From Escherichia coli (GTDB taxonomy: Bacteria > Pseudomonadota > Gammaproteobacteria > Enterobacterales > Enterobacteriaceae): a stretch of DNA of 64,000 bases. Position numbers: made by a program. Below are positions 1-3,000 of this stretch, one piece after another (the first letter of the stretch is position 1; each line of letters opens with the position of its first letter). The stretch lies in NCBI RefSeq assembly GCF_030384885.1, contig NZ_CP128614.1, one strand, 5' to 3'.

Positions 1-3000
1 TCCGCAGCACAAAAGGAGGCAAAAGGGTTATGGGCAGACACCAACCCTGTCCCACCATGGCAGTGGAGACAGGCAAACGAAAAGCCCAGAAAGGTGAAAG
101 AGAAGAAATAACCATGATGAAAGAGCCTCATCCGTTACTTCAGTTGGTACTAAACGATTCCGGTCGTCTAACCATGCCTGTTTATTATAGAGATCAACAG
201 TATTGCCCGACTTGCCTTACAAAGGTGTTGAAGAGTGAGGATGGAAGTTTGGCGCACCTCGGGGAAATAAATCAAAATACATGTAGACCTTCTATTTCAG
301 TAGTTGTGACAAAAGCAATTATTGAAATGTTATGTGACGGGGAAAAAATATATGTAAATCCAATACGACACCGAGGCCGGGTGCTGGCACCCTCAGTAAT
401 TTTTTCTCCCGACACTCACACTTTCAAACCGTTTATAAATACAGACTATCAGCCTGTGGGAGCAAACTGGAAAAGTGAAAAGGGATATAAACTCGGTCTG
501 TTTTATCTCAAAGATCGAGCCAACTCTATCAATAAAGAGGAATTTGATTTCATTGCCGTTATAGACCCTGAGGCAATGCAGAAAGAATTTATTTCGGCCT
601 GGTCTGAGGTTGATGAAAAAAATCCATTGGAAACGCTGAAGCAGATCTTACGATCTAAAAACAACTCTTCTTTATGGGTAAAATGGCCTGGCAAAATTGA
701 GCATGCGCAAAAAGGAAATTACAACGAAAATTACTGGTTCGATTATCAATCTGATAATCAGGAAGTGAACTGTACGGTCTCTGTTGTAGGTATCGAAGGT
801 AACAGTTCCGGTGAGACAATTTATAGATTGCAAACTTTGCTAAAGCGTAAGCTCAATGAATATCAACTGGTTCGGTCTTTAGGGACTATTATGCTTCTTG
901 ATAATACCGGGAATATGATTCCATCAAACCATCCTTATTTTGAAGTCATCTCAAAAGCATGTATAAATGGAGTGCGTGACTTTGTTCGTCAAAACCCGTG
1001 GGTAGTCTGACGGTCAACTATAAAGCATAATATAATTAGTAATAACAAGGAACAGACATGAATGAAAACTCAGTAATCTTAATAAGTTTATTTTGGTTTT
1101 TTTTGGGATCGAGTGTTGTAGCTGGTTTTATGGATGCATCATTATATTGCTGGATTTTTGCAGCCATAAGCGCATTGTTTCTTCTTTCGGTGATACAAAC
1201 ACCAAAGGAGTTAACGGTATCTATTAGTCATATGACAAGCAAAACGCTGATCTCAAAGACAGATGATGGATACACATTTAGCATTTCACCTTACGGAGAC
1301 GGGTACCGCTTATCAGTCTCGCCTGAAAATCGTCACAATGGTACCCAAAGCTTTGACGGCTGGTTCCCACGTTTTTTTTCCGAACCACAGTATGCCAAAT
1401 CATCTTTAACTAAATTTCTCGGTGAGTCCTTAGTATGGGAAGAAGATTCAAGTAATGCTCTATGAGATTACTTATTATAAATTTTTCTATTAATCTCCAT
1501 GGAGTGATATATGAATTTGGCCTATTTTTTATTTTTGTCTATAACTGTTATGCTTACGAGCTTTATTATTAAATCACTTGTCGTATTGGTAAAGTTCAAA
1601 TTACTTCGTGATGAACGTCTCGAATATACCAGCAATAAAAATATTGATGAGATGTACGATTTAATGAATGCGAAGGAAGAAATCCTCATAAGGCATCATA
1701 AGCAGATGTTGGCATTGCATCTTTCACTATTAATATTCGTTCTATTTATTGCTTACATTTACTAAAAATAATTTTATTCAACATTTCAACAAAGGGTTTT
1801 CAATGGAAAGCTTCGAAACTGAACAAATGATTCAATATGCTTTCTACATAAATATCGTAATAACGACTGGTTTGGCATGGTTTTGCTTGCGGTCAGGATT
1901 GCATTACAATTTTTTCAGAAAAGCAGAGAGTGCCAGAACAAAAGGGCTGAGTAGTACCTCTACTGAACACGGTCCAGCAATAGTGAGACTAAAGAAGCTA
2001 CAAGCATTAGTAGATTTTATTAGTAACTGTGCTTTTCTAATCCTTTCAATTGGCACAGCTTATATTTTGTATGTTTGGAGCCACAGTTAACTCATACGAG
2101 GTAACTTCGGCAGGTAACAACTTCTAATGCAGGACTTTAATAACTCTAAGGGATTCTACATGAAAAAAGACGATCTAATTACGCGTTGTAAATTACTTAA
2201 AGGCGAACGCGATGAGTCTATCTTTACCATATTAATTGGGATAGTAGTAAAGCTGGGGCTGGTAGGCCTGGCATTCTATCTGTTGCTTGGTTCCACGATT
2301 GATTGGTCAAGCTGGAAAACTTATGCCGCCATGTTGATCTTGGGAGCATTTCTCTAAAATCTTGAACCTTTTTTCACTCATTACAAGCCATGACCTAGTG
2401 CGTAGATCATACGATCTTTAAACCTTATGTCATTGATTTATAAGTACATATAACAAAGATTATGTTAAATACTGTATGTATGTACAGCATCAACAGTTGC
2501 CCCCCTCATATTGAGGTAATTGCTACATTCATACCACTATTCTTCTTATAGTATCGACATCCTGAATTATTGCACCCTACTGCTTTGTCTTTAGCTGTTC
2601 CGAATTAAAATTCATTGCTCAATTTGGATCACATGACGATCAGCGTATTCCTTTGCTTTATCAAAGTTAAGTTTTTAAAACATAAGATATGTAATGACAA
2701 ATTCTCAATCTGATTTTCCTTTGAACGATCAAAATTTTCAGGCAGATTTGCTGAAAATCAAAAAGGTTTTCGCCGACCTTATAACGCAGGCATCAGATGG
2801 TAAGATACCCATAAGGTCTTCTCATGTACACGGCTTACACCATTTCGAGGAGCTCTACATCCGGGCAAGAGCAGGCATGTGTTCGGTCCTGGGATATCCG
2901 GTCATGGTTGTTTCAACTATCTCAGTTAAAGAGCCCGGCACAGGCATTTTTAGAGCGCTTCTTGCAGAATTGAAATGTATTGCAGATGAACAAAATTACA

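Follow-up and report, generated by a model that had tools for sequence, protein, structure and literature searches.

A cluster of plus-strand genes at the left edge of a 64,000-nucleotide (nt) stretch of Escherichia coli DNA (contig NZ_CP128614.1, assembly GCF_030384885.1; the whole stretch is hereafter the window) proved, with high confidence, to be the distal part of a conserved backbone operon of IncHI plasmids, the first gene of which is cut by the window edge. That first gene encodes a nuclease of the staphylococcal nuclease (SNase) type, and the second encodes an orphan protein of 298 amino acids (aa), which we call X. The gene order in the window is SNase-X-A'::Y-D-C-E, and the ancestral order is SNase-X-A-B-Y-D-C-E, where A to E and Y are small open reading frames (ORFs). 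We are highly confident that X is functionally tied to the nuclease, not to the membrane proteins encoded behind it, and equally so that the small ORFs are a variable accessory set that has been rearranged in this lineage. Neither X nor its pairing with SNase has been described so far.

Linkage of X to the nuclease gene

The association of X with the nuclease is apparent from its persistence. X lies directly after the SNase gene in 14 of 14 independent loci, with a spacing of -8 to +17 nt, while the identity of X falls from 99% to 20 to 23%. These loci span IncHI2, IncHI1 (pHCM1), IncHI1A, and metagenomic plasmids, and the pairing is kept in locus L018 despite an otherwise different neighborhood. 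When conservation of the neighborhood across IncHI plasmids was examined, as had been suggested in the original prediction of this cluster, SNase-X was the constant part and the tail of small ORFs the variable one. Within the IncHI clade of nucleases (at least 60% identity), about 1,412 records compare with 1,465 records of X, and it is in that clade only that the two distributions match. Outside it, other genes occupy the position: the SNase gene is followed by a gene for a PLD-family protein and then one for H-NS in IncHI1B (L026, Klebsiella), where the divergent DUF1173 gene is kept and psiA is nearby, and HU stands in place of X in IncC (L027).

Two natural deletions, in pQC11_1 and pSAL4551-1, take nuclease and X sequence together, an outcome that fits several models. 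In pQC11_1, an IncHI2 plasmid of Serratia marcescens (L008 4581-5153), the deletion is in frame and joins SNase residues ~1-139 to X residues 249-298. The fusion product is annotated "nuclease," and similar fusions were seen (P0033 and P0034).

The leading gene encodes an SNase-type nuclease

The full nuclease gene was found in the IncHI2 plasmid pSTM6-275 (L001 11596-12111), where it encodes 171 aa and is annotated by PGAP as "thermonuclease family protein." PF00565 is assigned (precomputed) in all of the nuclease homologues, and residues 29 to 150 match staphylococcal nuclease structures in the PDB (phmmer E=1.3e-10). The Ca2+-binding and catalytic positions (SNase D21, R35, D40, E43, and R87) are kept in the motifs IDGDT, the Arg of IRMYG, IDAPE, and YGR; these residues are invariant among 13 paired nuclease homologues, with T41 changed to A. 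The NCBIfam models EcnA and NucI match at 68 and 49 bits, below their equivalog cutoffs of 180 and 250 bits, so the nuclease is a member of the family and not one of those specific enzymes. The N termini of the nuclease and its 13 homologues combine a Lys-rich n-region, a hydrophobic core, and small residues at -3/-1, which suggests, by heuristic reading, a Sec-type signal peptide. The gene is under purifying constraint, with a dN/dS of 0.16; this and all dN/dS values below compare the window with L010, in which X is 81% identical. SNase-type nucleases require millimolar Ca2+ and are thus essentially inactive in the cytoplasm.

Gene models, provenance, and distribution

The original prediction, made from the window alone, described five plus-strand ORFs (30-1010, 1058-1465, 1511-1765, 1749-2090, and 2127-2357) encoding a 326-aa protein and four small membrane proteins. 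All five ORFs are present, and their combined extent is not a matter of chance: each is at least 65 aa long, and together they account for 2,217 nt, compared with a shuffle mean of 1.05 +/- 1.0 ORFs and 251 nt, and none of 500 dinucleotide-preserving shuffles reached the observed coverage. The minus strand of the cluster has no ORF of at least 65 aa. Three starts differ from those given (114 in place of 30, more likely 1803 than 1749, and, in the annotation, 2160 in place of 2127), and the cluster does not begin at 30 with a 326-aa protein, since the first gene is the upstream SNase gene and the large ORF starts at ATGATG at 114, 2 nt past the nuclease stop codon. This is the start used by PGAP, and 24 X homologues align from it (MMKEP/MT..HPLL). 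The suspicion that upstream partners might be missing at the window edge was well founded, as the SNase gene lies there. The reading as a likely operon, an uncharacterized accessory cluster of an IncHI-type plasmid, also stands: the genes are co-directional and probably cotranscribed, the gaps between consecutive genes are 2, 47, 45, 37, and 69 nt, and Shine-Dalgarno (SD)-like motifs precede the starts. As had been stated, no conjugation, replication, or resistance function is recognizable in the cluster. An Rfam scan of it gave a chance-level result only. The features are collected in Table 1.

Table 1. Features of the SNase-X operon and its tail (positions in the window)
Feature	Position	Strand	Remarks
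SNase/thermonuclease gene, 3' end (last 37 codons + stop)	1-111	+	First gene of the operon; stop codon 109-111
False 5' extension of the "326-aa" ORF	30-113	+	Lies over nuclease codons, in a different frame
X	114-1010	+	298-aa orphan protein; zinc-ribbon-like motif C31-x2-C34-x13-H48-x8-C57; alpha/beta core
A'::Y chimera, 135 aa	1058-1465	+	Residues 1-56 are transmembrane segments TM1-TM2 of the 104-aa, three-TM protein A; residues 59-135 are soluble Y
Deletion junction	1225-1226		530 bp lost, namely, the A 3' end, the complete 85-aa B, and the spacer ahead of Y
Y domain	1232-1465	+	Stand-alone 77-aa soluble acidic protein elsewhere; starts at Met59 of the 135-aa ORF
D, 84 aa	1511-1765	+	Two-TM hairpin with charged loop; RHHKQML-LH-SLL-F motif; GGAG SD motif upstream; often unannotated
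C, 95 aa	1803-2090	+	Two-TM hairpin; ATG at 1803 preceded by AAAGGG; usually unannotated
E, 65 aa (76 aa from 2127)	2160-2357	+	Small and hydrophobic, one long hydrophobic stretch; 65 aa in PGAP; doubtful as a gene
Right-hand end of conserved block	2358-2359		Homology to R478-like L014 stops at 2359; variable cargo beyond, with different downstream genes in L014, L010, and L015

Positions 1 to 4800 of the window match the backbone of IncHI2 plasmids (MOBH, MPF_F) such as pSTM6-275 and are shared with hundreds of them at 100% identity; this IncHI2 backbone is present in more than 1,000 PLSDB plasmids. The cluster itself is AT rich (GC content of 0.29 to 0.44). In Salmonella, E. coli, and Enterobacter, resistance to multiple drugs, colistin (mcr), and heavy metals is carried to a major extent by plasmids of the IncHI2 and IncHI1 groups. 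The block is carried by 283 of 5,426 complete E. coli genomes (5%), almost always on a plasmid, and by more than 1,400 PLSDB plasmids, where nearly all of its annotation is "hypothetical." The R478-like IncHI2 lineage (L014) alone accounts for 462 PLSDB records at 95 to 99%. A 52%-identity version of the whole block occurs on two 4.8-Mb records (L003, CP010512.1, and L004, CALPAM010000002.1), which points to integration of IncHI-like elements into the chromosome of some Enterobacterales.

X belongs to a tiny orphan family

X is a member of a tiny orphan family without a detectable fold relative. Its 34 clusters come from a database of 5.8 billion proteins, and 25 matches at E<=1e-3 were all that a profile search of 1.84 billion representatives gave; when one genome per species was scanned, only one X locus turned up. 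The original prediction that the products would have no recognizable family holds for X and all of the small ORFs in Pfam, NCBIfam, PHROGs, PADLOC, and the PDB, and nothing linked the large protein confidently, by homology, to a housekeeping or transfer function. Heuristic calls gave X neither a signal peptide nor a TM segment. The motif near its N terminus is widely kept in A1, our alignment of 25 family members (C31 in 21 of 25, C34 in 21, H48 in 18, and C57 in 24), including the remote L018, L032, and L007; it is missing in L016 and L019, and the zinc-ribbon Pfam model does not match this N terminus. Residues invariant in A1 include W119, K123, G124, K141, D145, W188, W191, E234, D263, N264, G266, and C283, and the dN/dS of X is 0.19. 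In the structural check of X, an AlphaFold2 (AF2) model from the 25 sequences reached a predicted local distance difference test score (pLDDT) of 72 and a predicted template modeling score (pTM) of 0.65, and no fold match to it was found.

The idea that X is a diverged PLD nuclease, prompted by the PLD gene in its slot in IncHI1B plasmids, was rejected, as hhalign of A1 against the PLD protein of L026 gave a probability of 0.1% and the X family has no invariant His. Remote X-like genes are found after parAB, beside three genes for immunoglobulin (Ig)-like (Big) proteins, in a Raoultella MOBH plasmid (L007 5749-6774) and after hns in another element (L019/L020 5001-5801).

The small ORFs form a variable tail

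What follows X differs greatly among loci, from no same-strand ORF at all (L012 and L016) to an 810-aa Ig-like protein (L013) or Tn10 (pHCM1); where small ORFs are present they number two to six, with three in L002 (all soluble) and in L003 to L005 and six in L010 and L014. The expectation of four small membrane proteins agrees with the hydropathy of D, C, and E; the 135-aa ORF is only half hydrophobic and is a chimera with soluble Y. Comparison of the window with L014 by blastn dissects its origin, with window positions 1 to 1225 corresponding to L014 1501-2725 and positions 1226 to 2359 to L014 3256-4389. Exactly L014 2726-3255 is absent from the window lineage, and codon 56 of A is joined in frame 6 nt upstream of the Y ATG. 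L014 has separate genes for A, of 104 aa with three TM segments; for B, an 85-aa membrane protein; and for Y, a soluble, acidic protein of 77 aa. A and Y are likewise separate in L010.

Y, C, and D are genuine, recurring genes under purifying selection, with dN/dS values of 0.27, 0.17, and 0.23, respectively, compared to 0.18 to 0.25 for A and 0.33 for B. Nonconservation of the small ORFs, which had been named as a result that would speak against the original prediction, is thus not what we see for these three. Y is 56 to 62% identical (E~1e-30) to 75- to 76-aa ORFs in L002 and L004, where X is only 37 to 52% identical, and its family, annotated "hypothetical" throughout, comprises 20 clusters among 5.8 billion proteins. 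In L019, the remote X-like gene is followed by a 76-aa ORF, which was considered as a further Y homologue and is not one. D has homologues in L010 (94%), in L031 (39%, directly after X), and in L016 (E=1.5e-7), within a family of 30 clusters, all "hypothetical" and without a Pfam assignment. The 113-aa form of C starts at TTG 1749, inside D, and its homologues start at ATG 1803; C is related to a 99-aa ORF of L003 to L005 (35% identity, E=3e-15) and to a 98-aa ORF of L010 (55%). By hydropathy, both D and C have a charged loop of 30 to 35 residues between their TM helices. That they are paralogues could not be demonstrated (hhalign probability, 7.7%).

E is a doubtful gene. It is present only in IncHI2-type copies (L008, L010, and L014), is weakly constrained (dN/dS, 0.6 to 0.74), and is truncated by IS10 (ISVsa5) in p1782_2_EMB (L024 2760-4184). 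In another IncHI2 plasmid, pKAM622_2 (L015 1501-4329), the cluster differs from the window by many small insertions and deletions (31 and 78 gap positions), with SNase and Y unannotated and A and C altered; either decay of the cluster or errors of long-read assembly would account for this.

Neighborhood of the operon

The SNase-X pair is usually divergent from a co-directional set comprising a Dcm-type methylase gene, a 55-aa ORF, and a DUF1173 gene, with genes for a DUF4942 protein and a ~400-aa coiled-coil protein further out. In pSTM6-275 this neighborhood occupies L001 8384-11381 (minus strand) and 6084-8104 (plus strand). The Dcm-type C5 methylase gene, the 55-aa ORF, the DUF1173 gene, and often a 67-aa ORF are kept, together with the DUF4942 and coiled-coil genes, beside SNase-X down to 20 to 37% identity of X. 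The set could be an orphan methylase island or resemble a restriction-modification system.

On the other side, the block ends at a cargo hotspot (window 2358-2700 and equivalents, including that of L006). Its contents elsewhere include a type VI secretion system (T6SS; L002), Thoeris ThsB/ThsA (L003), SRAP (L016), SulP (L014), the 810-aa Ig-like protein with a faint SMODS match (L013), a TolA-like protein and a lipoprotein (L018), and Tn10/IS10 (pHCM1). In the window itself, positions 2694 to 4723 hold four family-less ORFs, of 153 and 135 aa on the plus strand and 175 and 128 aa on the minus strand, which belong to the IncHI2 backbone and are annotated "hypothetical"; the 175-aa product has a weak Pfam match to iSTAND (E=0.03). 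From about 4750 onward (4797-6386 and beyond), GC content rises from ~0.36 to ~0.65 at a Tn3-family (TnAs1-type) transposase gene. A resistance transposon has been inserted here, and the jump is its edge; related plasmids have the ter operon next.

Possible roles of the SNase-X operon

The reading that we tentatively favor, at a little less than an even chance, is that the operon is an envelope nuclease module with X as a cytoplasmic accessory protein, the small membrane proteins being optional and X not being an indispensable antidote. With modest confidence, we infer that the operon makes a Ca2+-dependent DNase that would act outside the cytoplasm, in the periplasm or the medium, on DNA reaching the envelope. 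X would then be a cytoplasmic factor made in step with the nuclease, and it might act on nuclease production, on nuclease activity before export, or on the same DNA substrate from inside, possibly by way of its zinc-ribbon-like N terminus. The small membrane proteins would be optional envelope-side accessories or hitchhiking cargo rather than core components. An envelope theme does recur 3' of X in unrelated loci, in the form of small TM proteins, an Ig-like secreted protein (L013), or a TolA-like protein with a lipoprotein (L018).

Several observations weigh against this module. The signal-peptide and TM assignments throughout are heuristic, and promoter and terminator scans of the cluster were at chance level, leaving spacing as the only basis of the operon structure. 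SNase homologues occur on at least 5,000 plasmids, and thousands of them (IncC, IncHI1B, and Acinetobacter) are without X; conversely, remote X-like genes (23 to 28% identity) exist without SNase. In L022 and L023 an IS903-like insertion sequence (IS) (4743 onward) interrupts X after codon ~229, removing its invariant LLDNTG motif and C-terminal helix, beside an intact 171-aa SNase ORF. As the nuclease gene is intact there although X is knocked out, an essential antidote role for X is improbable. AF2 modeling of a fused chain, mature SNase-(G4S)6-X, with 13 paired sequences gave a pTM of only 0.46 (pLDDT ~90 and ~77 for the parts), although this is a weak test, read without predicted aligned error or interface scores. 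Finally, we found nothing on these genes in the IncHI literature searched, including IncHI2 transcriptomes and supplements, and no paper citing the protein accessions of the cluster.

Other explanations of the pairing have to be considered. X may have its own function as a DNA-binding, nucleoid-associated, or plasmid-establishment protein that merely shares the nuclease transcript, filling a slot held by HU, H-NS, or a PLD nuclease in related MOBH plasmids. The CxxC..H..C motif in most family members would suit such a role, as would the genes that follow SNase in IncC (HU) and IncHI1B (PLD and then H-NS), the remote X-like genes right after hns (L019) or parAB (L007), the position of the block near the plasmid hns in both IncHI1 and IncHI2, and the adjoining orphan-type Dcm methylase. 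However, X resembles no DNA-binding domain in fold or sequence, some members lack the zinc motif, the block in pHCM1 is not beside the transfer or leading region, and the strict tracking of the nuclease, down to 20% identity and into the L018 context, would be left unexplained; we consider an independent X unlikely. A more specific idea of a leading-region or establishment function, prompted by psiA near the IncHI1B copy, found no support in pHCM1 or IncHI2, in which the block is close to repFIA/hns and the ter operon rather than to Tra1. SNase and X could instead be a toxin-immunity pair, for addiction or self-protection, in which X inhibits the nuclease in the cytoplasm before export, in the manner of NuiA with NucA or barstar with barnase. 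Such precedents, the strict adjacency and translational coupling in all 14 loci, the predicted localization of X in the cytoplasm and export of the nuclease, and the joint deletions in pQC11_1 and pSAL4551-1 all argue in its favor. Yet the would-be antidote is disrupted by an IS in L022 and L023 with the SNase ORF intact, the fused-chain model gave no confident complex, most plasmid SNases do without any X, Ca2+ dependence implies low SNase activity in the cytoplasm, and a 298-aa protein with a zinc-ribbon-like motif is unlike the known small nuclease inhibitors. Together these make an immunity function for X distinctly improbable.

The small ORFs invite explanations of their own. According to the original prediction, a large protein followed by four small membrane proteins has the architecture of a self-contained membrane-acting toxin/immunity, phage defense, or exclusion module. 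The co-directional, tightly spaced genes with hydrophobic products, the presence of Thoeris, T6SS, and SMODS-like genes in the downstream hotspot of other plasmids, and the recurrence of C, D, and Y near X in several lineages are in keeping with this. It now appears very unlikely, because the conserved unit is SNase plus X: the constant neighbor of X is the upstream nuclease in 14 of 14 loci, while the tail varies, X being found without small ORFs (L012 and L016), next to an Ig-like protein in their place (L013), or with Tn10 between it and them (pHCM1). One of the supposed membrane proteins is a deletion chimera, the 530-bp deletion having cost the most successful IncHI2 lineage both A and B, E is truncated by an IS, and a PADLOC match was obtained for the SNase domain only, with none for X or the small ORFs. 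Alternatively, some or all of the small ORFs may be decaying remnants or nonfunctional hitchhikers. We see little chance of this for the set as a whole and more for E, with its high dN/dS and its IS truncation in one plasmid. The loss of A and B without harm to the lineage, the frequent failure of PGAP to call C and D, and the tiny size of all the small-ORF families, confined to these plasmids, speak for decay. Against it stand the dN/dS values of Y, C, D, A, and B (0.17 to 0.33), the retention of Y, C, and D at 35 to 62% identity where X is only 20 to 52% identical, and an ORF content far above chance.

The envelope nuclease module could also be extended to a bolder form, which we hold to be improbable as it stands. 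SNase and X would constitute an unrecognized two-part system of IncHI plasmids for DNA degradation in the envelope, a barrier to incoming foreign DNA, in which X, as a new-fold, zinc-ribbon-bearing cytoplasmic protein, would license or control a periplasmic nuclease and C, D, and Y would couple the system to the inner membrane. Its targets might be phage, rival plasmids, or transforming DNA. Such a barrier would be near the original suspicion of a defense system in spirit, with the difference that it is centered on a nuclease whose gene lies largely outside the window. If X does control a nuclease barrier to foreign DNA, the finding would matter for competition among plasmids and for conflict between phages and plasmids; if X has no such role, the operon would be an ordinary uncharacterized backbone operon. 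In either case, tying a 298-aa orphan to a predicted secreted nuclease turns a vague cluster into a two-gene question, namely, what a plasmid gains from an exported DNase and why this clade would need a dedicated partner for it. The gene models have been corrected along the way, with a new start for X, two conserved small genes (C and D) that had gone unannotated, and an ORF recognized as chimeric.

Comparison with known systems

Among cataloged defense systems, the closest is the PADLOC candidate C3a212, "SNc+LTD," whose SNase part matches the nuclease (E=3e-11); the match is limited to the SNase domain, and there is no LTD domain in the operon. X, A'::Y, D, C, and E have no match in PADLOC-DB v2 at E<=1. 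Nuc of pKM101 is a PLD-family periplasmic nuclease of a conjugative plasmid, bears a signal peptide, and has an unclear role. It resembles our case as a signal-bearing nuclease on a conjugative plasmid, and a PLD gene fills the X slot in IncHI1B, but its fold is different and X is no PLD relative.

SNase homologues are common on plasmids, the classic example being ParB of RK2/RP4 (parCBA), and their biological role is generally unknown. The parCBA operon shares an SNase-fold protein with the first gene of the operon studied here; it differs in that ParB is encoded together with the ParA resolvase and ParC, whereas in the IncHI loci the neighbors of the nuclease are dcm/DUF1173 and X, with neither a resolvase gene nor parC beside it in any of them. 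The thermonucleases of IncC, IncHI1B, and Acinetobacter plasmids share the SNase as well, but X follows it in the IncHI clade only, and the others are followed by HU, by PLD and H-NS, or by unrelated genes. NucA/NuiA of Anabaena and barnase/barstar are pairs of a secreted nuclease and a cytoplasmic inhibitor, and the likeness to SNase-X lies in a predicted exported nuclease encoded beside a predicted cytoplasmic protein made in step with it. X departs from those inhibitors in that it is not similar to them, is much larger, and has been naturally knocked out beside an intact nuclease ORF.

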